64,000 nt of DNA from an uncultured bacterium (GTDB taxonomy: Bacteria; Krumholzibacteriota; Krumholzibacteriia; LZORAL124-64-63), in NCBI GenBank assembly GCA_963772145.1, contig CAVYVY010000024.1, forward strand, positions 130,870 to 194,869. Reading direction: 5' to 3'. The notes under the pieces are model-generated. The model did no database searches, had not been told where the DNA came from, and worked only from the letters and a program-made list of their open reading frames with translations. Made by a program: the position numbers and the translations under genes. How positions within the stretch are numbered: the first letter of the stretch is position 1; every line of letters begins with the position of its first letter. Shown piece after piece: positions 25,312 to 63,678 of this stretch.

Positions 25312-25387
25312 TGGTGCGCCGCCGGGGACTCGAACCCCAAACCTACTGATTAAGAGTCAGTTGCTCTACCAGTTGAGCTAGCGGCGC
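25312..25387 (-). tRNA. tRNA-Lys (anticodon CTT)
   Basis: The reverse complement GCGCCGCTAGCTCAACTGGTAGAGCAACTGACTCTTAATCAGTAGGTTTGGGGTTCGAGTCCCCGGCGGCGCACCA folds as a cloverleaf. The anticodon loop is CT-CTT-AA and CCA is encoded. Confidence 0.95.
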
Positions 25388-25448
25388 TCCAGAGACGGGC
25401 GGGTGTGGCCGGCGGGGATGCGGGGTGCTATCCTCGCGGGGACGAAGG

Positions 25449-25477
25449 AATTAAGCACGGGGGGCCGGCGTTGTCAA
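25449..25477 (-). promoter_or_regulatory. Candidate promoter of tRNA-Lys
   Basis: On the minus strand: TTGACA (25472-25477), 17 nt, then TTAATT (25449-25454). Confidence 0.35.
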
Positions 25478-25508
25478 GCCGGAGAGGCTCAGGCACACTG
25501 GAGGAAAT

Positions 25509-26180
25509 GTGACGGCGGACGGTACCGGGGCGACCCGGGTGCTCGATCTGGCGACCCGCAAGCGGCGGGCGAAGATCGTCGTGCGGTTACTGCGGAAGGA
25601 ATTTCCCGACGCGGCCTGCTCGCTCGACCATCGGGATGCGTTCCAACTGCTGGTGGCGACCATCCTCTCGGCCCAGTGCACCGATGCGCGGGTCAATCTG
25701 GTGACGCCGGGGCTGTTTCGGCAGTTCCCCTCGCCTCGCGATTTTGCCGAGGCGCCGCTTGCCGAAATCGAGGAGGCGATCCGCTCCACCGGGTTCTTCC
25801 ACAACAAGGCGAAGGCGCTGCAGGGGTGCGCTCGCGCCTTGATCGAGCGGCATGGCGGAGAGGTGCCACGCACGATGGACGAACTGCGGGTGCTGCCTGG
25901 TGTAGGGCGTAAGACGGCGAACGTCGTGCTCGGGGACGCGTTTGGCTCGCCCGACGGGGTCGTGGTCGACACGCATGTGGGGCGGATCGCGCGGAAGCTC
26001 GGGCTGACCGGGGAGCAGGATCCGGAGAAGGTGGAGCGGGATCTCAGCGGCTGCGTCCCCCGCACTGACTGGGTGGCGGTCGGACACCTGCTGATCGAGC
26101 ACGGGCGGCGGACCTGCCGGGCGCGGGCGCCGCGGTGCGACGGGTGTCCGTTGTATGCGGAGTGCGAAGCGCGGGGCTGA
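25509..26180 (+). CDS. nth: Endonuclease III (DNA glycosylase/AP lyase)
   Basis: [24 protein letters not shown]...[13 protein letters not shown]...[15 protein letters not shown]...[17 protein letters not shown] (the FeS cluster loop). Intact. Confidence 0.9.
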
Positions 26181-26197
26181 TCGATGCCGGGGCGACG

Positions 26198-26240
26198 AAA
26201 AACGGCGCCGGCCTCGTGGGGGGGGCCGGCGCCGTCTGTT
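26198..26240. terminator. Hairpin terminator between convergent nth and ssb (best fit for ssb)
   Basis: 12-bp stem ACGGCGCCGGCC (26202-26213) / GGCCGGCGCCGT (26224-26235). An A5 run lies upstream (T5 on the minus strand) and CTGTTT downstream. Confidence 0.7.
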
Positions 26241-26258
26241 TCGAACCGATCCGCGGAG

Positions 26259-26757
26259 CTAGAACGGCAGGTCGTCGTCGTCCGAGCCGGGCGGAGGGGC
26301 CTGCGGGAAATCGCCTTCGTCGTCGGGGTGCGGGGACGGGCCGCCGGGGCGCGGGCCGCGCTGGCCACCGCCGCCGCCGCCGCGCGCTGCCGGCGCGGCC
26401 ACCGCCGCCGCCGCCTTCGCCCTCACCGGGGCGGCCGAGCATCTGCATGATGTTGGCCACGACCTCGGTGGTGTAGCGCTTGCCGCCCTCCTTGTCCTCC
26501 CACTGGCGGGTCTGGATGCGGCCCTCGACGTAGATCTGCTTGCCCTTCTTCAGGTACTGCCCGCAGATCTCGCCGAGCTTGCCCCAGGCCACGATGTTGT
26601 GCCACTCGGTGCGTTCCTGCTTGTTCCCTTCGCGATCGGTCCAGACGTCGGTGGTGGCGATGCGGAAGTTCGCCACCGCCTGGCTGTTCTGGGTGTAGCG
26701 CACCTCGGGGTCGGCCCCGAGGTTGCCGATGAGGATGACCTTGTTGACACTCGCCAT
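26259..26757 (-). CDS. ssb: Single-stranded DNA-binding protein, frameshift in the Gly-rich tail
   Basis: [91 protein letters not shown]. The acidic tip GSDDDDLPF-stop is read in another frame and ends at 26259. Confidence 0.9.
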
Positions 26758-26923
26758 CCCAACCTCCTGCGGCTGGGCGGCCAATGGCCGCCCTGGTTCT
26801 TGATGGCCCGGTTGACCGGGCGCTCCCGGCGCGCAGCCCTGACCGCCACCCGGGCAGGGGAGGACACGGCGGCTGGGAGGAACGCCCCGATCGCGCGCGG
26901 AGATCGGGACGGGAGAAAAGCGG

Positions 26924-26999
26924 TGGGGTGGATGATGGGACTCGAACCCACAACAACCGGGACCACAACCCGGGGCTCTGCCATTGAGCTACATCCACC
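26924..26999 (-). tRNA. tRNA-His (anticodon GTG), with G-1
   Basis: Reverse complement GGTGGATGTAGCTCAATGGCAGAGCCCCGGGTTGTGGTCCCGGTTGTTGTGGGTTCGAGTCCCATCATCCACCCCA. The anticodon loop is TT-GTG-GT, and the extra 5' G pairs with C73. Confidence 0.9.
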
Positions 27000-27015
27000 A
27001 CCGAAATTGCATGTC

Positions 27016-27092
27016 TGGCGCGCCTGGCAGGACTCGAACCTGCGACCGTCGGATTAGAAATCCGATGCTCTATCCGACTGAGCTACAGGCGC
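27016..27092 (-). tRNA. tRNA-Arg (anticodon TCT)
   Basis: Reverse complement GCGCCTGTAGCTCAGTCGGATAGAGCATCGGATTTCTAATCCGACGGTCGCAGGTTCGAGTCCTGCCAGGCGCGCCA. The anticodon loop is TT-TCT-AA. Confidence 0.9.
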
Positions 27093-27178
27093 AAGCTGGC
27101 CCCGCCGCAGCGCGCGGGGACGGCTATGATGGCCCCGGTCGCGCGGCGTGTCAAGGCTCCCGCCGTCAACGGCAGTGG

Positions 27179-27255
<77 letters not shown>

Positions 27256-32962: not shown

Positions 32963-33049
32963 GCCCGGATGGCGGAATTGGTAGACGCGCTACGTTCAGG
33001 TCGTAGTGAGGGAATCCTCGTGGGAGTTCGAGTCTCCCTCCGGGCACCA
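32963..33049 (+). tRNA. tRNA-Leu (anticodon CAG), long variable arm
   Basis: GCCCGGATGGCGGAATTGGTAGACGCGCTACGTTCAGGTCGTAGTGAGGGAATCCTCGTGGGAGTTCGAGTCTCCCTCCGGGCACCA. The anticodon loop is TT-CAG-GT. Confidence 0.95.
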
Positions 33050-50639: not shown

Positions 50640-51916
<1,277 letters not shown>

Positions 51917-53029: not shown

Positions 53030-53104
53030 ACTAAAGACCGGGGCGGTCGTCAAGTGACGGAATCCGCACTGCCGTGTCGTCGCCACGCACCGCGGAACGA
53101 GGGG

Positions 53105-54421
53105 TCAGGGGGAAACGGCCGGGGCCGCGACGCCGGGCGGGCCGAGGCAGGCGTACCACAGCAGATCGGTCAACGGCAGCACCGGCAAAGCCGGCGAGCG
53201 CTTCCCCAGGGCGGCCTGGATCTGGCCGAGGCAGCCGGGATTGCCGGTCACCACGAGATCCGCTCCGGTCGCGGCCAGGTTGCCCGCCTTGCGCCGGCCC
53301 ATCCGCGCCGACAGGTCCGGATGCAGCAGCGCGTACGGTCCGCCGCTGCCGCAGCAGACCTCCGCCTCCTCCGGTTCGACGAGCGTCAGACCGGGGATGC
53401 GCGCCAGCAGCGCGCGCGGCTCGCGCACGATCCCCTGGCCGTGGCGCGCGTGGCAGGGATCGTGGTAGACGACACGCAGCGGCACCGTTCGCGCCGGCGG
53501 CAGCGACCGCCCGGCCAGCAGCACGGCGGCATCGCGCACCCGGTCCGCCAGCGCGGGCGGGGAATGCCGCAGCTCCAGGCCGCAACCGGCCGCCTCGACC
53601 ACGATCACGTCCACCCCGTCGACCGGCGCGAAGGCCGCCAGATTCACGGCGCGCGACCGGGCCGCTGTCTCGATCTGGCCGGCGTGCGCCGCCAGCGCGC
53701 CGCAGCAGGTCTGTCCCCCGACCTCCACCAGTTCGCAGCCGGCCGCGACGAGCAGCGCGCGCAGGCGACGCTGCGACGCCGGCAGCAGTTCGGCGCTGGC
53801 GCAACCGGCGAACAGGGCAACGCGCAGCGGAGGACCGGACGCGCCGGCCGGCGACGTCAGCGGCGACCTCTCCGCCGCGGGCGGGGGTGTTCGTCCCGCG
53901 CCGGCCCGCGCGGTCAGGCGGTCCAGCAGCCGCACCAGGGCGGCGTCGCCCGGGGACCACGGCACGCTCGCCGCGAGATGCCGCAGCGTCGCCGCCGGTC
54001 CGCGCGCGTCCGGCCCGGCGAAGGCGCGGATCGGAGCCGTCGCGGCACGCAGTCCCCGCAGCACGCCGCGCCGCACCAATAGGGCGGTCATGACCCGGGT
54101 GCCGGCGCCGCGTCGCGCCGCGTGCCCGAGCGCCTTGACCGCCTCGAACAGATCGAGCGCCACGCCGCTCGGGCAGGCGGTGATGCAGGCCTGGCAGCCG
54201 AGACACTGGTCGAAGGCGGTCAGCGCGGACGGCTCGGACGACCGCTCCGGGGCGGCCAGCAGTTCCCCGAGCAGCAGCAGACGCCCGCGCGGCGACTGCG
54301 CCTCGCTGCCGGTGGCGAGATAGGTGGCGCAGTGCGGCAGGCAGAGACCGCACTGGATGCAGGAGCGCAGCAGGTGGTCGAGGCGCGCGCGCAGCGCGGG
54401 GTCATCGAGCGGGACGCTCAT
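53105..54421 (-). CDS. glcF: Glycolate-oxidase-type iron-sulfur subunit (GlcF-like: 2x4Fe-4S plus two CCG domains)
   Basis: CIQCGLCLPHCATY, CLGCQACITACPSG, GQTCCGALAAH, EVCCGSGGPYALLHPD. ATGA overlap with the glcD-E stop. Intact, 438 aa. Confidence 0.85.
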   Translation of the reverse strand: MSVPLDDPALRARLDHLLRSCIQCGLCLPHCATYLATGSEAQSPRGRLLLLGELLAAPERSSEPSALTAFDQCLGCQACITACPSGVALDLFEAVKALGHAARRGAGTRVMTALLVRRGVLRGLRAATAPIRAFAGPDARGPAATLRHLAASVPWSPGDAALVRLLDRLTARAGAGRTPPPAAERSPLTSPAGASGPPLRVALFAGCASAELLPASQRRLRALLVAAGCELVEVGGQTCCGALAAHAGQIETAARSRAVNLAAFAPVDGVDVIVVEAAGCGLELRHSPPALADRVRDAAVLLAGRSLPPARTVPLRVVYHDPCHARHGQGIVREPRALLARIPGLTLVEPEEAEVCCGSGGPYALLHPDLSARMGRRKAGNLAATGADLVVTGNPGCLGQIQAALGKRSPALPVLPLTDLLWYACLGPPGVAAPAVSP

Positions 54422-56937
54422 GGCGTCTCCGCCGGGGTTCGCGGCAGCCACGACGGGCGCGGCAGCCGGTCGCCGGGATCGAACAGCGCCTTCAGCCCCG
54501 CGAGCAGCGGGAGCGACCGCCGGTCGACGGGCGGCGGCGGCTCCGTGAACGCGCCGTCGCGCACGATGGCGTCGCGCTGCCAGGCCTCCGCCACCGCGTC
54601 GAGGCGCGGCTCCGGCGATCCCGCGCCTTGCGGGCGCCGCGCGACCCAGACCAGGCGCGGCGCGGTCTGGAACACGACCCCCTCCCCCGCACCGCCCGGC
54701 CAGCCGCGCGGCGCGCCGCGCGGCGCGAGCAGGTCCCACGTCGCGCCGGCGCGCGCCCACGTCGGCCACCACGGCTGCGTGGCGAGCGTCGCCAGCTGTG
54801 CGAAGGGGAGTCGCGTCTCGTCCAGGTCGCGCAGTCCCGCCGGGCCGAGGAGCGCCGCGAGCCGCGCCGCGCGCCGGTCGAGGTCCCAGGGGCGATCGCG
54901 CCCCCCGGCGACGACCAGCAGCGACCAGCCGTCGTCGGGCGTCCACCGGCCGGCGCACACCGCGCCGGCCAGGTCGGCGCCCCAGGTCGCCAGTTCGCGC
55001 GCCAGCGGAGCCAGGTCGGGCGGCGGCGCGCCGGGCCGGCTGACACCGCGCCAGGCGGCCACGGTCTCGGGCAGCGGCTTGAGTTGCAGCGTCGCCCCGG
55101 TCACGCGCGCCAGCGCCCCGCCCGCCCCGCAGAGCAGCCGCGCCAGATCGTACCCGGCGACGTTCTTGAAGACCGGCGCGCCGGCGCGCAGCGCCCGGCC
55201 GTCGCCGGTCACGGCCCACACCTCGAGCAGCGAATCGCGCAGGGGACCGGTGCCGAGCAGCGAGGGGCCCGGCAGCCCGCGGTCGATCGCCTCGCGCAGC
55301 GAGGAAGCGGCGCCGAGTCCGACGCCGCCCGCCTCGGCAAAGACCGCGCCGCACGGGACCCAGAGACCGCGCGCCAGCGCCAGCGCCTGGATCTCCGCCA
55401 GCGGCGCCTCGCCCGGCGCGCGCACCGTGAGCGAGTCCCAGGCGAAACGGATCTCCGTCGGCGCCGTGGCCGGCGCGCGCGCGGGCGCCGGTGCGCCGGG
55501 CGGCGGCGCCGGCGGCAGCGCCTTGCCCGGGTTGACCAGCCCGCGCGGATCGAACAGCCGTTTCACGCCCCGCATCAGCTCGGCCGCGACCGGGTCGAGC
55601 TGCCGTCCGACCACGTGCAGTTTCTCCAGGCCGACGCCGTGCTCGCCGGTCACACTGCCGTCGAGCGCCAGCGTGGCGGCCAGGATCTCGTCCGCCGCCA
55701 GGTGCGCGCGGCGGGTCAGATCGCCGTCACGCTCGTCGTAGTGGACACCGGGGTGCAGATTGCCATCGCCGGCGTGGAAAGCGGTCGCCACCCGCACGCC
55801 ATGGCGCCGGCCGATCTCGCCGACCTGGCGCACGATCTCCGGCAGCCGCGCCAGCGGCACCACGATGTCCATGGTGACATAGCTGGGCGCGAGGCGTCCC
55901 ACGGCGCCGAACGCCTTCTTGCGGCACCGCCAGAGCGCCGCCCGCTCTTCGTCATCGGCGGCCCGGCGCACCTCGCGGGCGCCGCGCTCGCCCAGCAGCC
56001 GCGCCGCCCGGTCCGCGTCCTCCGCCACCGCCTCGGCCAGCCCGCCGAACTCCACGATCATGGCCGCCTCGACGTCGGTCGGGAAACCGAAGTGGAACGC
56101 CTCCTCCACCGCCTCGAGCATCGCCTGGTCGACCATCTCCACCGCTTCGGGCAGCAGCCCGGTCCCCATCAGAGCCACCACGGCCGCCGTGGCGTCGTCG
56201 AGCCGGGGGAACAGCGCCAGCAGGGTGATCAGCGTCGGCGGTTCCGGGGTCAGCCGCACGCGCGCGGAGGTGACGAGGCCGAGCGTGCCCTCGCTGCCGA
56301 TCAGCAGCGCGCGCAGGTCGAAGCCGCGTTCGTACGGGAGGCCGGACCCGGTGACGCGCGGCTGCCCTTCCGAGTCCACCCACACCAGCGCGAGGACATG
56401 ATTGAGCGTGACGCCGACCTTCAGCGTGTGCGGCCCGCCGGCGTTCTCGGCGACATTGCCACCGATCGTGGCGGCGCTCTGGCTGCTCGGGTCGGGCGCG
56501 AAACAGAGGCCGTACGGGCGCGCCGCCCGGGAGAGACGCTCGTTCACCACGCCGGCCCCGGCGTCGGCGCGACCGGCCTCCGCCGCGATGGTGCAGCGGT
56601 CGAGCCGCGCCAGTCCGATCACCAGCGCGCCCGCGGGCGGCACCGCCCCGCCCGACAGGCCGGTGCCCGCGCCCCGCGCCACCCACGGCACCCCGTGGCG
56701 CGCGCAGGCCGCCACCACGGCGGCCGCCTGCGCGGCGTCGCGCGGCAGGGCCACCCCCAGCGGCGGCCCGCCCGCAAGGTGCGAGGCATCCCGGGCATAG
56801 ACGGCGCGGGCGGCCGGATCGACCAGCAGTCCCCGCGGACCGAGCAGCCGGCGCAGGTCGCGCAGCAGCGCCGGGCCGGCCGACGCGGCGACGGGAGCGG
56901 CGGGACCGCGGGCGGTGGTGACGGGCGGCAGCGGCAA
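54418..56937 (-). CDS. glcD: Fused FAD-linked oxidase GlcD-like (N-terminal ~470 aa) and GlcE-like (C-terminal ~360 aa) protein
   Basis: Single uninterrupted 839-aa ORF. The GlcD part is VPWVARGAGTGLSGGAVP...FAPDPSSQSAATIGGNVAENAGGPH...SEGTLGLVTSARVRL...HAGDGNLHP...GEHGVGLEK...FDPRGLVNPGK. A Pro/Ala linker follows. The GlcE part is PLRDSLLEVWAVTGDGRALRAGAPVFKNVAGYDLARLLCG...LKALFDP. The apparent start codon is TTG. Confidence 0.8.
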   Translation of the reverse strand: MPLPPVTTARGPAAPVAASAGPALLRDLRRLLGPRGLLVDPAARAVYARDASHLAGGPPLGVALPRDAAQAAAVVAACARHGVPWVARGAGTGLSGGAVPPAGALVIGLARLDRCTIAAEAGRADAGAGVVNERLSRAARPYGLCFAPDPSSQSAATIGGNVAENAGGPHTLKVGVTLNHVLALVWVDSEGQPRVTGSGLPYERGFDLRALLIGSEGTLGLVTSARVRLTPEPPTLITLLALFPRLDDATAAVVALMGTGLLPEAVEMVDQAMLEAVEEAFHFGFPTDVEAAMIVEFGGLAEAVAEDADRAARLLGERGAREVRRAADDEERAALWRCRKKAFGAVGRLAPSYVTMDIVVPLARLPEIVRQVGEIGRRHGVRVATAFHAGDGNLHPGVHYDERDGDLTRRAHLAADEILAATLALDGSVTGEHGVGLEKLHVVGRQLDPVAAELMRGVKRLFDPRGLVNPGKALPPAPPPGAPAPARAPATAPTEIRFAWDSLTVRAPGEAPLAEIQALALARGLWVPCGAVFAEAGGVGLGAASSLREAIDRGLPGPSLLGTGPLRDSLLEVWAVTGDGRALRAGAPVFKNVAGYDLARLLCGAGGALARVTGATLQLKPLPETVAAWRGVSRPGAPPPDLAPLARELATWGADLAGAVCAGRWTPDDGWSLLVVAGGRDRPWDLDRRAARLAALLGPAGLRDLDETRLPFAQLATLATQPWWPTWARAGATWDLLAPRGAPRGWPGGAGEGVVFQTAPRLVWVARRPQGAGSPEPRLDAVAEAWQRDAIVRDGAFTEPPPPVDRRSLPLLAGLKALFDPGDRLPRPSWLPRTPAETP

Positions 56938-56991
56938 GGTCTCTCCGCACGCTCAGGTCGCAGGGCGGTCGAAGGGCGTCATGATCCCGTT

Positions 56992-57547
56992 TCAGATCAG
57001 GTCGCGCACGATTTCGGGGCGGGGGTTGGCGATGATCGTGGTCTGGACGAGCATCCCCTTGCCCCGCGCGACCGCCGCGGCGCTCTCCACGGCGGCCGTG
57101 ACCGCCGCCAGCATGCCCCGTGAAGGTGAGGAACGCCTTGCCGCCGAGCGCCATGGCGAGACGCATCTCCAGGAATTCCACCGACGCGGTCTTCGCGGCG
57201 GCGTCGGCCGCCTCGAGCATCGTGGCGACGCTGAAGGTCTCGACCAGGCCGAGGGCGTCGAGCGAGCCGGGCTGGCAGACGTTGCCCATCGCCGGCAGCA
57301 GCGCCGGGTGGGCGTGCGGCAGGATCATCTCGTCGACCAGCGACTCCGCCGCCGTGGCCGCCCCCGCGGCGACGCTCGCGCGGACCGCGCCGACGTCCCC
57401 CTCGACCAGCACGACGTACTTGCCGGAGCAGACGGAGCGGTTCATCAGCAGCCGCACGTCGGCCGCCTTGAGCATGGCGTCGGCCGCCTCGATGCCGCGC
57501 ACGACGCTGCTGGTTTCGATCATGCCGAGGGACGGGTTGCTGCTCAT
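56992..57547 (-). CDS. Tandem-BMC-domain shell protein (BMC-T, PduT-like), one frameshift near 57115
   Basis: LGMIETSSVVRGIEAADAMLKAADVRLLMNRSVCSGKYVVLVEGDVGAVRASVAAG...LLPAMGN...ALGLVETFSVATMLEAADAAAKTASVEFLEMRLAMALGGKAFLTFTG, then (restored) ...AAVTAAVESAAAVARGKGMLVQTTIIANPRPEIVRDLI-stop. It is collinear with my recollection of Salmonella PduT, including the Cys in ..ICPGK. Confidence 0.8.
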
Positions 57548-57577
57548 GCCTGCTCCTTCGCGGCCCGGCCGGCGGGC

Positions 57578-58947
57578 TCAGCCGCGCACGATCACGGTGG
57601 CCGTCTCGCCGACGCCTGCCACGCGCCCGTCGCACGGCGCGTGCACCGGGACCCCCATCTCCCCCTCCGCCACGTCGGCCACCACCTGTCCGCGCGCGAC
57701 GCGCTCGCCCGAGCGCAGCCGCGGCCGTCCGGCCGCCCCGGCGTGCTGCCGGTGCGCCACGGTGAGGGTGTCGGGCAGCGGGGTCAGGTCGCGATACGGC
57801 GCCGGCACGTCGAAACGGCGCAGATCGAGCCGCAGTTTCAGCATCGCCAGCGGCACGAGGCGGCCGTCGCGCAGCGGGTGCGCCGCGCCGCGGTCGGGCG
57901 GCGGCGGCGGCGACCGGCCGGCCCGCGGCGGCGGCCGCGCGCGGCGCGCGTTTCGTCCAGCGGCAGGCATCGCGCGGCGAGAGATCCTCGGGGCAGGCGT
58001 ACAGGTCGCAGAGGCCGCACTCGCAGCAGAGGTTGCCCCAGGCGTCGAAATCGGCGGCGCGGTCGGGACCGAAGCCGAGCCCCCGCATGACCCGATGCGG
58101 TTCGACGGCGTAGCCGAGCAGGTAGCGCGGACAGAACTGCGTGCAGTAGCTGCACTGGTCGCACGCCGAGCGGCCGACGGCGCGCTTGACGCTCTCCGGC
58201 TCGGTGGCGAAGCGGACCAGGCGGTGCGTCGGCGGCAGGAACAGCAGGGCGGCGGTGGTCTTCGTGACGGCGTGGGCCGGGTCGCGCACCGGCCGTCCCA
58301 TCATGGCGCCCCCCTCGAGGGCGATCCACGGCTCCGGCGCCGCCGGCGTAGCCGCCGGCCTGGGCCAGCAGGTCCCCGACCGGCGCGCCCAGCGGCACGG
58401 CCGCCGTGTACGGCCGGCGCACGGCGCCGCAGACGGTCAGCCAGGTCTCGGTGACCGGCTCGCCGTCGAGCGCCGCGGCCAGGTTGACCAGCGTCTCCAC
58501 GTTCTGCACCAGCACGCCCACCTCGGTGGGGAACCCGCCCGGCGGGGGGCGCCGGCCGGTCAGCGCGTGCACGAGCAGGAATTCGTCGCCCGAAGGGTAG
58601 GTGTCGTCGAGCCCGGCCACCTCGAACCCGCGCCGTCGTCCGCAGGCCTGGCGCAACGGCTCCAGCAGCTCGCCGCGCTTCTTCTTCACGGCGATGATCC
58701 GCCGCTTCGCCCCCACCAGTTCCGCCGCCCGCGCCATCCCGTCGAGCAGCCGCGCCGTGCGTCGCTCCATCAGGTGGAGGTCCTTCTCCAGCAGCGGTTC
58801 GCACTCGGCGCCGTTGGCGATGACCGTGTCGGCGGCGGCGCGCAGCTTGAGATGCGTGGGGTAACCGGACCCGCCGGCGCCGACCACGCCGGCGGCGCGG
58901 ATCCGCGCCAGCGACTCGTCCTTGTGTGCGCGACTCACCATGCTCAC
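57578..58947 (-). CDS. PduS/RnfC-like flavin and Fe-S oxidoreductase (Complex1_51K/SLBB + 2x4Fe-4S + C-terminal barrel-sandwich domain), frameshifted
   Basis: SLARIRAAGVVGAGGSGYPTHLKL..DTVIANGAECEPLLEKDLHLME (ORF 57838-58947). CDQCSYCTQFCPRYLLG...CCECGLCDLYACPEDL (ORF 56997-58304). RLRSGERVARGQVVADVAEGEMGVPVHAPCDGRVAGV (ORF 57578-57970). Confidence 0.8.
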
Positions 58948-59060
58948 AGCCGCCCGGGTCGGGAATGCGCGGAAGCCGGCGCCGTGCGGGCCGGCGGCGA
59001 ACCGGCCGGCAGTATAAGCCGGGCCGGGGGCCCCTCACAAGCCCGTCCCCGCCGCTGACA

Positions 59061-59089
59061 TTGACGCTGCCTTGTCACCTGCCTATAAT
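59061..59089 (+). promoter_or_regulatory. Near-consensus sigma70 promoter of etfBA
   Basis: TTGACG (59061-59066), 17 nt, then TATAAT (59084-59089). The inverted repeat TGACA..TGTCA (59056-59060 / 59073-59077) overlaps the -35. An 18-nt palindrome, GCGCCGGACGTCCGGCGC, lies in the leader (59103-59120). Confidence 0.7.
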
Positions 59090-59144
59090 CCCGCCCTTGC
59101 TCGCGCCGGACGTCCGGCGCCGCCGACGGTCACGAGGAGGAACG

Positions 59145-59927
59145 ATGAAGATCGCCGTGCTGGTGAAACAGACGCCCGACTCCGAAACCCGGATCGGCCT
59201 GGCCGGGCCGGCGCCGAAGCTCGACGACTCGAAGTTCACGCGCGTGCTGAACCCCTACGACGCCTACGCCGTCGAGGAGGCCATCCGCATCCGGGAGCGC
59301 ACTCCCGGGACCGAGGTCACCGCCATCACCGTGGGGCCGCTCGACCGGGTGCGCGAGACGATCAAGAAGGACTGCCTCGCGGTCGGCTGCGACAAGGCGA
59401 TCGTGGTCAGCGACCCGGCCCTCGCCGACGCCGACGAGGCGGGCGTGGCGGCGGTCCTGGCGGCCGTCCTGCGGCAGGACGCCTACGACCTGATCCTCTG
59501 CGGCAAGCAGGCGATCGACGACGACGCCGCGCAGGTCGGCGTGCGCGTGGCGGAAATCCTGGGTCTGGCGCACGTCAGCGTCGTGACGAAGCTGGACCTG
59601 GCCGACGGCGCCCTGACCGCCCGGCGCGAGATCGACGGCGGCATCGAGATCGTCACCGCACAGCTGCCGGCGCTCATCACCTGCCAGAAGGGCCTCAACG
59701 AGCCGCGCCTGCCGAGCCTGCCGAACATCATGAAGGCCGGCGCGAAGCCGCTGCAGGTGATCACCTGCGCGGACCTCGGCCTGACGCCGCCCGCGCGGAC
59801 CTACGAGATCCGCCAGTACGCGCCGCCCCCGCCGCGCGCGGCGTGCCGGCTGGTCCAGAACGACGATCCCGCCGCCGCGGCCGCCGAGCTGGCCCGCCTG
59901 CTGCGCGAGGAAGCCAAAGTCATCTGA
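59145..59927 (+). CDS. etfB: Electron transfer flavoprotein beta subunit
   Basis: GAGGAGG RBS. MKIAVLVKQTPDSETRI...LNPYDAYAVEEAIRIRE...LILCGKQAIDDDAAQVGVRVAEILGL...PRLPSLPNIMKA. Intact. Confidence 0.9.
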   Translation: MKIAVLVKQTPDSETRIGLAGPAPKLDDSKFTRVLNPYDAYAVEEAIRIRERTPGTEVTAITVGPLDRVRETIKKDCLAVGCDKAIVVSDPALADADEAGVAAVLAAVLRQDAYDLILCGKQAIDDDAAQVGVRVAEILGLAHVSVVTKLDLADGALTARREIDGGIEIVTAQLPALITCQKGLNEPRLPSLPNIMKAGAKPLQVITCADLGLTPPARTYEIRQYAPPPPRAACRLVQNDDPAAAAAELARLLREEAKVI

Positions 59928-59946
59928 GGAAGAGGGAGCCAGGACG

Positions 59947-60924
59947 ATGCCGAACATCGCCGTCTTCATCGAGCAGCGCGACGGCCAGGTCAGGAAAGTG
60001 GCCTGGCAGATGATCGCCGAAGCCCGCCGTCTCACCGACCAGGCCGGCGGTGAGGTGTGGGGCGTGCATCTGCACGCCGCCGCGTGCGACACGGCGCAGC
60101 ACGCCGGCGCGCACGGCGCGCACCGGCTGTTCACCGCGCAGCACGACCTGTTCAAACTCTACAACAGCGAGGCCTGGACCACCGCGATCGTGACCTTCGC
60201 GCGCGAGCACAAGCCCGACCTCATCCTGATCGGCGCCACCGCCCTGGGCAAGGACCTCGCGCCGAAGGTGGCGCAGCGCCTCGGCGCCGCCTGCATCAGC
60301 GACAGCGTCGCGCTGCGGTACGACGGCGCCGTCTTCGAGGTGCGCCGCCCCATCTACGCCGGCAAGTGCTTCGTGGACGTCGTGCCGAAGACCAGCCCCG
60401 CCGTCGTGGTCGCGCGCCCGAACGCCTTCGCCCTCGGCGCGGGCGACGGCGCCGCCGCCGTCGAGACCCCCTTCGCGCCCGGCGTGGACGGGATCGATCT
60501 GAAGGCGCGCGTGGTCGAAGTGCAGGCGGCGGAAGGCCGGAAGGTCGAATTGACCGAGGCCGAGGTCATCGTCTCCGGCGGCCGCGGCATCAAGGGCCCC
60601 GAGAACTACCACCTGATCGAGGAGCTGGCGGCGAGCCTCGGCGCCGCCGCCGGCGCCAGCCGCGCCATCGTCGACGCCGGCTGGGTCCCCCACGCCCACC
60701 AGGTCGGCCAGACCGGCAAGACGGTCAGCCCCAACCTGTACATCGCCTGCGGCATCAGCGGCGCGATCCAGCACCTGGCCGGCATGTCGTCGAGCAAGTG
60801 CATCGTCGCGATCAACAAGGATCCCAACGCCCCCATCTTCAAGGTCGCCGACTACGGCATCGTGGGCGACCTCTTCCAGGTCGTGCCGGCGCTGCAGGCG
60901 GAGATCGGGAAACTGAAGGGGTAG
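59947..60924 (+). CDS. etfA: Electron transfer flavoprotein alpha subunit
   Basis: [14 protein letters not shown]...[73 protein letters not shown]...[13 protein letters not shown]. Intact. Confidence 0.9.
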
Positions 60925-62270: not shown

Positions 62271-62585
62271 TCAGTTTCCCATCGCCAGAGGAGTCAGCGG
62301 CTGGTTGGGTGACATCCGCATCACACGGGCAACAATCGTTCCCGGCGGGAAGTGACAGACCGAGATGGAAAGTCCCGTGGTGTCTGCCAGTCGCTGCAGT
62401 TCCAGCTTCCACAGTTTCAGCCGTGGTCCGTTGCTGCCGCCATCATCGGCGGTGATCAAGATGTCCTTCGCTGCGGGATACAGACACCGGCCTTCGTGCC
62501 GCCACCTGCCGGTGATGGACGCTACCGCGAAGGCGGCGGTGTCGTGGTCCGTCCCCACATTCACGAAGCCCGTGACCGAACCCAC
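62271..62585 (-). mobile_element. Internal fragment of an ISAzo13-family (DDE_Tnp_ISAZ013) transposase, truncated at both ends
   Basis: GFVNVGTDHDTAAFAVASI...YPAAKDILITADDGGSNGPRLKLWKLELQRLADTTGLSISVCHFPPGT matches the central conserved block of that family as I recall it. Similarity stops after PPGT and there is no N-terminal half. Confidence 0.6.
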
Positions 62586-62632: not shown

Positions 62633-63678
62633 TCAAGACACGCGACGCCACCGCGCCCCGCGTCCGCGACCATCCAGCAGTACGAGGCCCTCGTCCCGCA
62701 TGGCGGCCAATTCCCGCTTGATCGTCGGTAAGCTGACGCCGGGGCATTGGGCCTTGATGTCCGCCAAGGCGAACGGCCCGACCATGCGCGCAACCGCTTC
62801 GCGGACGAGCGCGGCCCTGCTGCCGCCTCCGCGATTCAATGCACCGACACGCTCGGTGAACTCAGAGTAGGCCCGCAGCAGAACACCCCAGAAGTAGTCC
62901 AGCCAGGGGTGCGGATCGTGGCGGCATTCATGCCACTGGCGCGAGCTTCGTGCGAGCGCCTCGTAGTACGTTTCCTTCGATTCCTCGATGACACGCTCGA
63001 GACTGATGTACCGGCCCACCTGGTGACCCATTCGGTAGAGCAGAAGCAGGGTCAGCAACCGCGACACACGGCCATTGCCATCGACGAAGGGGTGGATGCA
63101 CAGGAAGTCGAGAACGGCCAGGGGCGCCACGACCAGTCCGGGCCGTTCTTCACCATCAGGGCACGGCGCAGGCCGGATGTCAGGTCCTCCATGGCCTGCG
63201 GCGTGGCCACGGCCGGCACGGGTTTGAATCGCACGCGCAGCACACCAGTGGGATCGCGTTCGACGACTTCGTTGTCCACCATCTTCCAGTTGCCGCCGGG
63301 CTGCGGCAGGTAGCGATACATGGTCGCGTGGAGTTGACGGATGACGTTTGCCGTCACGTCCATGTCGGCGGCCGCATCGTGGATCAGGGCCAGAACATCG
63401 CGATATCCGGCAATCTCCTGTTCCGACCGGTTGTCCGGTGTCGTGTGTTCGATCACGATGCCCTGAATGCGCTTGCGGGGCGCCTGGATTCCCTCGATCC
63501 AGTTGGACGACTCGGCCGATTCGACCTGGGCGATCCTGCGCATCGTCTTGAGCACTTCCGGCAAACGCTCGGCGTAGAGGGCCTGCTTGCCCTGATATTC
63601 ACCGATGCGATGCAGCGTCTCGAGCTGCAGCGCCGAGAACTGCAAACTGTCGAGGTAATTGCCAGCCAAGGAATGCAC
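62633..63678 (-). CDS. Fic/DOC-family protein (class II, with N-terminal inhibitory motif) with C-terminal wHTH, one frameshift near 63150
   Basis: Fic motif HPFVDGNGRVSR (ORF 62633-63130). The N-terminal helix ESAESSNWIEG fits [ST]xxxE[GN] (ORF 63052-63678). The C-terminus LPTIKRELAAMRDEGLVLLDGRGRGARW is wHTH-like. Confidence 0.8.

Follow-up and report, generated by a model that had tools for sequence, protein, structure and literature searches.

By examining a 64,000-nucleotide stretch of a contig from an uncultured Krumholzibacteriia bacterium (CAVYVY010000024.1; this whole stretch is called the window below), with a GC content of 63-79% in 2-kb bins, we found four co-oriented genes on the minus strand (53105-58947). 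They encode homologs of PduS and of the bacterial microcompartment (BMC) shell protein PduT, followed by the parts of a glycolate-oxidase-like enzyme, in the order pduS-like, BMC-T, glcDE and glcF. Divergent from these are the two genes of an electron transfer flavoprotein (ETF). A first-pass annotation of the window had named both sets, and the domain identities it gave are borne out by Pfam for all six proteins. The features of the locus are listed here, one per line.

57578-58947, minus strand: pduS-like gene (MNdh), 455 aa after frame correction (translation, plot of GC at third codon positions (GC3) by frame, Pfam, orthologs)
56992-57547, minus strand: PduT-like tandem-BMC gene (BMC-T^SE type), 184 aa after frame correction, PF00936 found twice
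54418-56937, minus strand: glcDE fusion, 839 aa, FAD-linked 2-hydroxyacid oxidase/dehydrogenase-like (Pfam, NCBIfam)
53105-54421, minus strand: glcF-like gene for an Fe-S/CCG subunit, 438 aa (Pfam, NCBIfam)
59145-59927, plus strand: etfB, 260 aa (Pfam ETF)
59947-60924, plus strand: etfA, 325 aa (Pfam ETF and ETF_alpha)
53036-53048, minus strand: weak terminator-like hairpin just 3' of glcF, the sole one in the region
59061-59089, plus strand: promoter-like site TTGACG-17-TATAAT, sigma-70-like in 11 of 12 positions, facing etfB
59040-59011, minus strand: promoter-like site TTGTGA-18-TATACT, 9 of 12 positions, facing pduS

The gaps of 30 to 54 nt and the ATGA overlap reported earlier for the minus-strand genes were recovered when the coordinates were re-read. 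The pduS stop (57578) is separated by 30 nt from the BMC-T ATG (57547), upstream of which an AGGAG Shine-Dalgarno sequence is found, while the BMC-T stop (56992) is followed after 54 nt by the TTG start of glcDE (56937), and glcDE and glcF share the ATGA at 54418-54421. Three promoter-like sites were found, as compared to 0.1 expected in shuffled sequence, and among them is the near-consensus divergent promoter that had been claimed ahead of etfB. For terminator-like hairpins the count was one against 2.1 expected by chance, meaning that the hairpin after glcF is not significant alone, and the hairpin scan of the region identified none between pduS and the end of glcF. The genes from pduS to glcF are tightly packed and probably co-transcribed.

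Neither of the first two genes is an uninterrupted reading frame in the window. The 184-aa BMC-T protein described earlier exists only after correction, and pduS is likewise interrupted. Three-frame translation and the codon-position GC plot place two frame changes in pduS, at ~58334 and ~57911, and one in the BMC-T gene, at 57113-57115. In an alignment with the related loci L007, L208 and L209 (93-95% nucleotide identity), all three shifts turned out to be single-base insertions private to the window, and the codon-position GC periodicity carries on across every one of them. Orthologs of pduS are intact in L007 and, at 452-455 aa, in L001, L208, L209 and L214, as are the BMC-T orthologs of the relatives, at 184 aa. 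Errors of the same appearance occur elsewhere in the window: compared with references of ~95% identity, ahcY (51195-51775) has ten private indels of a single base in a span of 600 bp, fic has one (at 63156), and of acrB (832-2205) one frame contains no more than a fragment. These errors are unevenly spread and locally concentrated, with zero indels in the 3.8 kb of glcDE and glcF.

Since the shifts are private to the window, the orthologs are intact and ten indels of this type are present even in the housekeeping gene ahcY, the frameshifts in pduS and the BMC-T gene are most likely assembly errors rather than signs of gene decay. The alternative, that the pair is a decaying relic whose three frameshifts are real, would fit the concentration of all three in the 1.9 kb of pduS and BMC-T, next to a glcDE-glcF stretch that is free of them. 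We nevertheless rejected this pseudogene reading as highly improbable, as the copies in L007, L208, L209 and L214 (BMC-T 95-99% identical at the amino acid level) are intact, the periodicity persists over each shift, and the indels in ahcY and fic together with the fragmented acrB point to assembly errors. The corrected BMC-T protein reads ...TFTGQLAAVTAAVES.... Split genes, e.g. pduS and aconitase, were also seen in several long-read Acidobacteriota metagenome-assembled genomes (MAGs) of the Microflora-Danica type (L087 8429-9753; also L015, L018, L023 and L084), which suggests indel errors of the same kind as in the window and gene calls that need frame correction.

In its corrected form, the BMC-T protein contains PF00936 twice (9e-47) in one chain of ~184 aa that is not permuted. 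The closest solved structures are Desulfitobacterium 3NWG (2e-48), PduT 3PAC (2e-39) and 3N79. Cys40 (VCSGKY) is aligned with the cysteine of 3PAC 'ticpgkf' (PduT Cys38) and of 3NWG 'vcpgky', in agreement with the earlier proposal that it occupies the position of the PduT pore cysteine, and it is invariant in both of our alignments, with 27 and 36 homologs, respectively, the larger of which spans several phyla. Equally invariant in both are the D-x-x-x-K lysines K27 and K119 (one per domain) and, in the C-terminal PRP motif, P175, while R176 is invariant among the 27 homologs and nearly so among the 36. These lysines and the PRP motif, which occupy edge positions of BMC tiles, are kept as in shell-bearing lineages.

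An AlphaFold2 monomer model of P0001, a protein 97% identical to the window BMC-T, has a predicted local distance difference test score (pLDDT) of 91. Its template modeling (TM) scores are 0.90 to 3NWG and 0.83 to 3PAC, or 0.81-0.90 when 3N79 is included, and Cys40 is located at the tip of a beta-hairpin formed by residues 32-40 and 43-50. Judging by homology, Cys40 would bind a 4Fe-4S cluster in the pore of the trimer. The window protein shares length, fold (TM 0.83-0.90) and cysteine position with PduT of Citrobacter and Salmonella (3PAC, 3N79) and with the D. hafniense BMC-T (3NWG), but it is only 34-47% identical to them and is located outside any pdu or eut operon. It also scores 113 bits against the NCBIfam equivalog eut_PduT (TIGR02526), below the cut-off of 250, and is a member of the wider PduT-like family, outside the pdu/eut ortholog group. 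A Krumholzibacteriia MAG with the same gene order (GCA_054635255.1) has a BMC-T that is in the same 90% protein cluster as that of the window and 98.9% identical to it.

The frame-corrected PduS-like protein is composed of Complex1_51K (1e-40), SLBB, Fer4_17 and a C-terminal RnfC_N barrel, with Pfam matches at residues 14-155, 169-219, 262-324 and 391-451. It has two 4Fe-4S motifs of the form CxxCxxCxxxCP, namely CDQCSYCTQFCP and CECGLCDLYACP. The position of RnfC_N at the C-terminus is permuted relative to RnfC, which is the domain arrangement that characterizes MNdh/PduS, and the NCBIfam rnfC subfamily is matched with 213 bits only, below its cut-off of 246.

Together, the two proteins correspond to a module that has already been described. 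In the 2021 catalog of BMC loci, a BMC-T with a pore cysteine comes as a rule with PduS (PMC8217296 Supplementary Data 2), and the pair has since been renamed MNdh/BMC-T^SE, with an experimentally established electron path that begins at NADH and runs over FMN and three 4Fe-4S clusters (Sutter et al., PNAS 2024, PMC11626177). Both proteins have their counterparts in the window, where the gene order is unchanged and the two genes are strictly adjacent. Its PduS-like protein shares Complex1_51K, SLBB, the Fer4 dicluster and the permuted C-terminal RnfC_N with MNdh, and its BMC-T has, like BMC-T^SE, both BMC domains in one chain as well as a pore cysteine, here within CSGK as opposed to the published CP(G/S)K (PMC11626177). 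What sets the window apart from the published module is that no aldehyde dehydrogenase (AldDh) or other shell gene is found nearby, and that GlcDEF-like genes follow on the same strand.

Pairs of this kind are often situated away from the remaining shell genes. According to the catalog they occupy satellite positions in the BMC types ACI, FRAG1 (24 of 57 loci), FRAG6, HO and SPU1, and are part of the main loci of FRAG7, MIC4, MIC7, MUF3 and SPU1/2 (PMC8217296 Supplementary Data 2), while the shell genes of FRAG types can be scattered over up to six places (PMC8217296). Satellite positions also prevail for the module in PVM (18/20) and ACI (5/7) (PMC11626177). As in the satellites of ACI, FRAG1, FRAG6, HO and SPU1 (PMC8217296) and of PVM (PMC11626177), the pair in the window has neither BMC-H nor BMC-P genes anywhere near it, and its relatives come from the same taxa. 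A tandem PF00936 gene is the only shell gene in the 64 kb and BMC-P is lacking, i.e. there is one shell Pfam type, by which satellite loci are recognized (Axen 2014; Sutter 2021). A satellite has by definition a main locus in the same genome, whereas the locus described here is known from 64 kb alone. Among those supplementary files of the catalog that can be searched as text (PMC8217296), the string 'Krumholz' gave zero matches, and our literature search found no paper in which the PduT/PduS pair is connected with Krumholzibacteria, with genomes that lack a shell or with glycolate-oxidase-like genes.

Related loci were obtained in a scan with one genome per species, which gave 589 relatives, and gene neighborhoods were counted for the best 80. 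These were distributed over Bryobacterales and other Acidobacteriota, Bacteroidota, Ignavibacteriota/Melioribacteraceae, Zixibacteria, Elusimicrobia and Myxococcota. PduS is found directly before BMC-T in 79 of the 80 loci, while the first gene after BMC-T, in a crude pick of open reading frames (ORFs) from 73 loci, belongs to more than 40 unrelated families, the largest with six members. BMC-H or BMC-P occurs within 10 kb in six of the 80 loci only, namely L004, L032, L057, L068, L070 and L078. GlcDEF or ETF genes beside the pair are confined to the clade of the window, with none in at least 74 loci of other phyla. As the adjacency is kept in 79 of 80 loci while the downstream genes vary between lineages, it is the PduS/BMC-T pair itself that is the conserved unit, moving between contexts.

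In the nearest outgroups, the Zixibacteria L004 and L032 (BMC-T 57-59% identical), the pair is situated within a shell locus with the order BMC-H with an extension, BMC-P, PduS, BMC-T, ACT_6 and DUF711. A triad of BMC-P, ACT_6 and DUF711 (PF05167), in that order, is found beside shell genes in lineages unrelated to each other, i.e. in Ignavibacteriales, Pyrinomonadaceae and a marine TARA contig as well as in these Zixibacteria (L004 10582-12761; L195 3756-8746; L211 6647-12149; also L032, L078, L128, L141, L193 and L212). AldDh or PduL sometimes accompanies the triad, which is not present in the window. In the parts of the catalog consulted, an ACT protein is described under FRAG4 only (PMC8217296).

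We consider it probable, though well short of certain, that the pair is the known MNdh/BMC-T^SE (PduS/PduT) module, forming a satellite locus of a dispersed microcompartment in a Krumholzibacteriia genome, with the other shell genes, if present, located elsewhere. This reading is preferred because it fits all findings as well as the descriptions of lone pairs in the 2021 catalog and the 2024 PNAS study. Of the two interpretations that the first-pass annotation had left side by side, it is the satellite of a distant BMC that has gained ground. By homology to characterized systems, three BMC-T chains would form a pseudo-hexameric tile, in the central pore of which the three Cys40 residues would hold one 4Fe-4S cluster. 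PduS/MNdh would dock on the lumenal face and oxidize NADH at its FMN, and the electrons would pass via the two 4Fe-4S clusters of PduS to that of the pore and on to a cytosolic acceptor, thus regenerating NAD+ for an encapsulated aldehyde dehydrogenase. Formation of the complex, its incorporation into a shell and the presence of that shell in this genome are likewise predictions.

The genes downstream of the pair were compared within the clade of the window, which consists of six lineages with BMC-T proteins 71-99% identical to that of the window, plus a 3-kb contig (L005). For each of these, one per line, the BMC-T identity, the genes after BMC-T and the position of etfBA are as follows.

Window group (window, L007, L208, L209, L214): BMC-T 95-99%; then glcDE and glcF; etfBA directly divergent
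L001 group (L001-L003, L006): BMC-T 84%; then glcDE and glcF; etfBA directly divergent
L210: BMC-T 76%; then Pyr_redox_2, glcDE and glcF; etfBA ~6 kb off
L215: BMC-T 77%; then Pyr_redox_2, glcDE and the contig end; etfBA not seen on this 5-kb contig
L086: BMC-T 71%; then Pyr_redox_2, glcDE and glcF; etfBA ~4 kb off
L085: BMC-T 78%; then Pyr_redox_2 and Cu-oxidase_4, with no glcDEF; etfBA ~4 kb off
L005 (3-kb contig): BMC-T 75%; then Pyr_redox_2

Hence, glcDE follows BMC-T, either directly or past the Pyr_redox_2 gene, in five of the six lineages, down to a BMC-T identity of 71%. The gene order does recur in other genomes, but only within this clade. In the deeper branches, the gene directly after BMC-T encodes a Pyr_redox_2/Pyr_redox_dim flavoprotein of 470 aa, at gaps of 28-46 nt (L005 2316-2969; L085 10599-12017; L086 7779-9194; L210 10601-12013; L215 2376-3791). 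It was not found in the window subclade or anywhere in the 64 kb, and the distribution indicates that this flavoprotein is ancestral to the clade and was lost from the window subclade. The conservation extends further along the contigs, with an ArsR-methyltransferase gene following the block in every lineage except for the short L215 and L005 contigs, and with ahcY, adenosine deaminase, ubiA and DUF116 genes wherever the contig reaches. What is conserved is therefore the order of an entire ~12-gene block, and the majority of its genes clearly have nothing to do with microcompartments.

An alternative that retains a shell elsewhere in the genome would be that the BMC-T^SE port has its cytosolic redox partner in the co-transcribed GlcDEF-like enzyme, along with the ancestral Pyr_redox_2 flavoprotein, with electrons being either taken from the pore cluster or fed to it. 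The tight packing on a single strand, uninterrupted by terminator-like sites up to the end of glcF, is in line with this, as is the persistence of glcDE after BMC-T across the clade and the immediate succession of BMC-T and the Pyr_redox_2 gene in the five deeper loci. The acceptor in vivo is moreover still to be named, and no specific protein was found to co-occur with the pair (PMC11626177). The order of the pair and GlcDEF is not specific evidence, however, because the synteny covers ahcY, adenosine deaminase and ubiA equally well. GlcDEF is absent in L085 and from beside the pair in the loci of other phyla, and the Pyr_redox_2 gene is missing from the window subclade. The expected acceptor is, furthermore, a small protein with access to the concave pore, either a ferredoxin or a flavodoxin (PMC11626177), and not a large multi-subunit enzyme. 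The termini of GlcDE and GlcF showed no resemblance to encapsulation peptides, as judged by eye only. We regard such a partnership as unlikely, and the best-supported reading of the GlcDEF-like genes is that they represent a lineage-specific gene order rather than a dedicated complex.

Residues 59-472 of GlcDE contain FAD_binding_4 and FAD-oxidase_C (Pfam). This first half is GlcD-like, with 423 bits against an NCBIfam cut-off of 568 (and 381 against 897 for another), and residues 504-627 match GlcE with 95 bits, below the cut-off of 284. GlcF has a Fer4 dicluster and two CCG domains, and reaches 160 bits against the NCBIfam GlcF cut-off of 333. Orthologs of glcDE are 811-841 aa long in L001, L086, L208, L209 and L210. 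The units are the same and in the same order as in E. coli GlcDEF (FAD_binding_4/FAD-oxidase_C, a second FAD domain, and two 4Fe-4S plus two CCG), but in the window GlcD and GlcE are fused into the 839-aa protein, and the three parts are all below the equivalog cut-offs. Since this applies to every NCBIfam match among the six proteins, all six names denote families and not proven functions. The glycolate/lactate-type oxidase of the first-pass annotation is correct as far as domain architecture goes but over-specific as a name, 'glycolate oxidase' being, on the strength of these matches, a family resemblance and not a substrate assignment.

A GlcD-family flavoenzyme near etfBA is also a feature of LctBCD-type lactate dehydrogenase/ETF complexes, which the window resembles in this respect. 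In the window, though, etfBA is on the other strand with a promoter-like site of its own, and two to five genes lie in between in three of the clade lineages. EtfB has a GKQAIDDD-type motif, which we assume to be typical of non-bifurcating ETFs. ETF was rejected as a dedicated partner, as etfBA is separated from the operon by 4-6 kb with other genes in between in L085, L086 and L210, and it is probably an ordinary neighbor that is not part of the module.

Some of the evidence weighs against the satellite reading and should be set beside it. MNdh occurs only in BMC types with AldDh (PMC11626177), and none is found in the window or in the flanks of the clade loci. Searches by tblastn with BMC-H, BMC-P, AldDH, PduL, ACT and DUF711 queries gave no match in the 64-kb window other than the genes described, in line with the earlier statement that neither BMC-H, BMC-P nor a signature aldehyde dehydrogenase is encoded there, and BMC-H, BMC-P, AldDH and PduL are also absent within 10 kb of the pair in 11 clade loci, with ACT and DUF711 genes likewise lacking in the flanks of the clade lineages. 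The term orphan, by which the pair had been introduced, can be used for the 64-kb window only. The linkage to glcDE and glcF, kept in five of the six lineages with short gaps on the same strand, is moreover what a functional operon would look like. Finally, two wider searches brought no shell locus of the clade to light. The first, a protein search with a Zixibacteria BMC-P encoded beside a related pair, returned names from Zixibacteria, Acidobacteria and Delongbacteria but none from Krumholzibacteriia, a result uninformative about absence, and none of the matches had an amino acid composition suggestive of a 70-75% GC genome. In the second, metagenome contigs were searched for the BMC-P motif D-x-[LIV]-G-A-G-x-G-E-x-V, written as a degenerate pattern of GC-rich codons, which gave at least 120 high-GC BMC loci, none of those compared being akin to or syntenic with the window or its clade in tblastx comparisons, which is equally uninformative about absence. 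Candidates for the shell locus of the clade that were considered and discarded are L128, L141, L156 and L195 (AldDH, BMC-P, ACT, DUF711), which are Pyrinomonadaceae, and P0194, which belongs to a marine TARA lineage.

Taken to its end, the lack of other shell genes in the 64 kb and in the flanks of the 11 clade loci, along with the operon-like packing with redox enzymes, would point to a shell-less genome, in which PduS and BMC-T have been co-opted into an independent complex that transfers electrons for the oxidoreductases encoded downstream. For a module that is known as a satellite, however, little can be concluded from an absence over 20-64 kb. The lysines at the tile edges and the PRP motif are invariant or nearly so, the pair is part of shell loci in the closest outgroups, and no published shell-less PduT was found in the literature search. 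We judge this possibility to be decidedly improbable. It is also the second interpretation of the first-pass annotation, a stand-alone conduit for a hydroxyacid dehydrogenase/ETF system, which gained no support. The pair is adjacent in nearly all loci while its GlcDEF and ETF neighbors are restricted to one clade, where GlcDEF is absent from L085 and preceded by Pyr_redox_2 in L086, L210 and L215, in a synteny that includes ahcY, adenosine deaminase and ubiA to the same extent, and where etfBA lies at a distance in three lineages. Considered jointly, the possibilities that the downstream flavo-FeS enzymes are either the cytosolic partner of the port or served by a shell-free electron conduit are rather doubtful.

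At face value, the satellite reading means that the many taxa known to have a PduS/PduT electron-port module as a satellite are joined by a further candidate phylum. The pair is ordinary and already described, while its operon context is new and of unproven significance. If the partners are relevant, this lineage offers a concrete candidate for the acceptor that the 2024 study could not name, and if a closed genome of the clade should be without other shell genes, the BMC-T would, according to the literature searches made here, be the first reported to work outside a shell.

Elsewhere in the window, five tRNA genes were identified at 25312-27255 and 32963-33049 (Lys-CTT, His-GTG, Arg-TCT, Pro-TGG and Leu-CAG), with those for His, Arg and Pro clustered; beyond these, no rRNA or other Rfam families were found in the window. 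Another observation concerns the segment 62543-63858, in which fic is located as well as the flank of a gene for an AAA_14/DUF4143 ATPase. The identity of this segment to L208 is 99.5%, as compared to 95% for the 15 kb next to it, suggesting a recently exchanged or mobile piece. Beside this segment, the ORF at 62271-62585 resembles, by eye, a fragment of an ISAzo13-like transposase.

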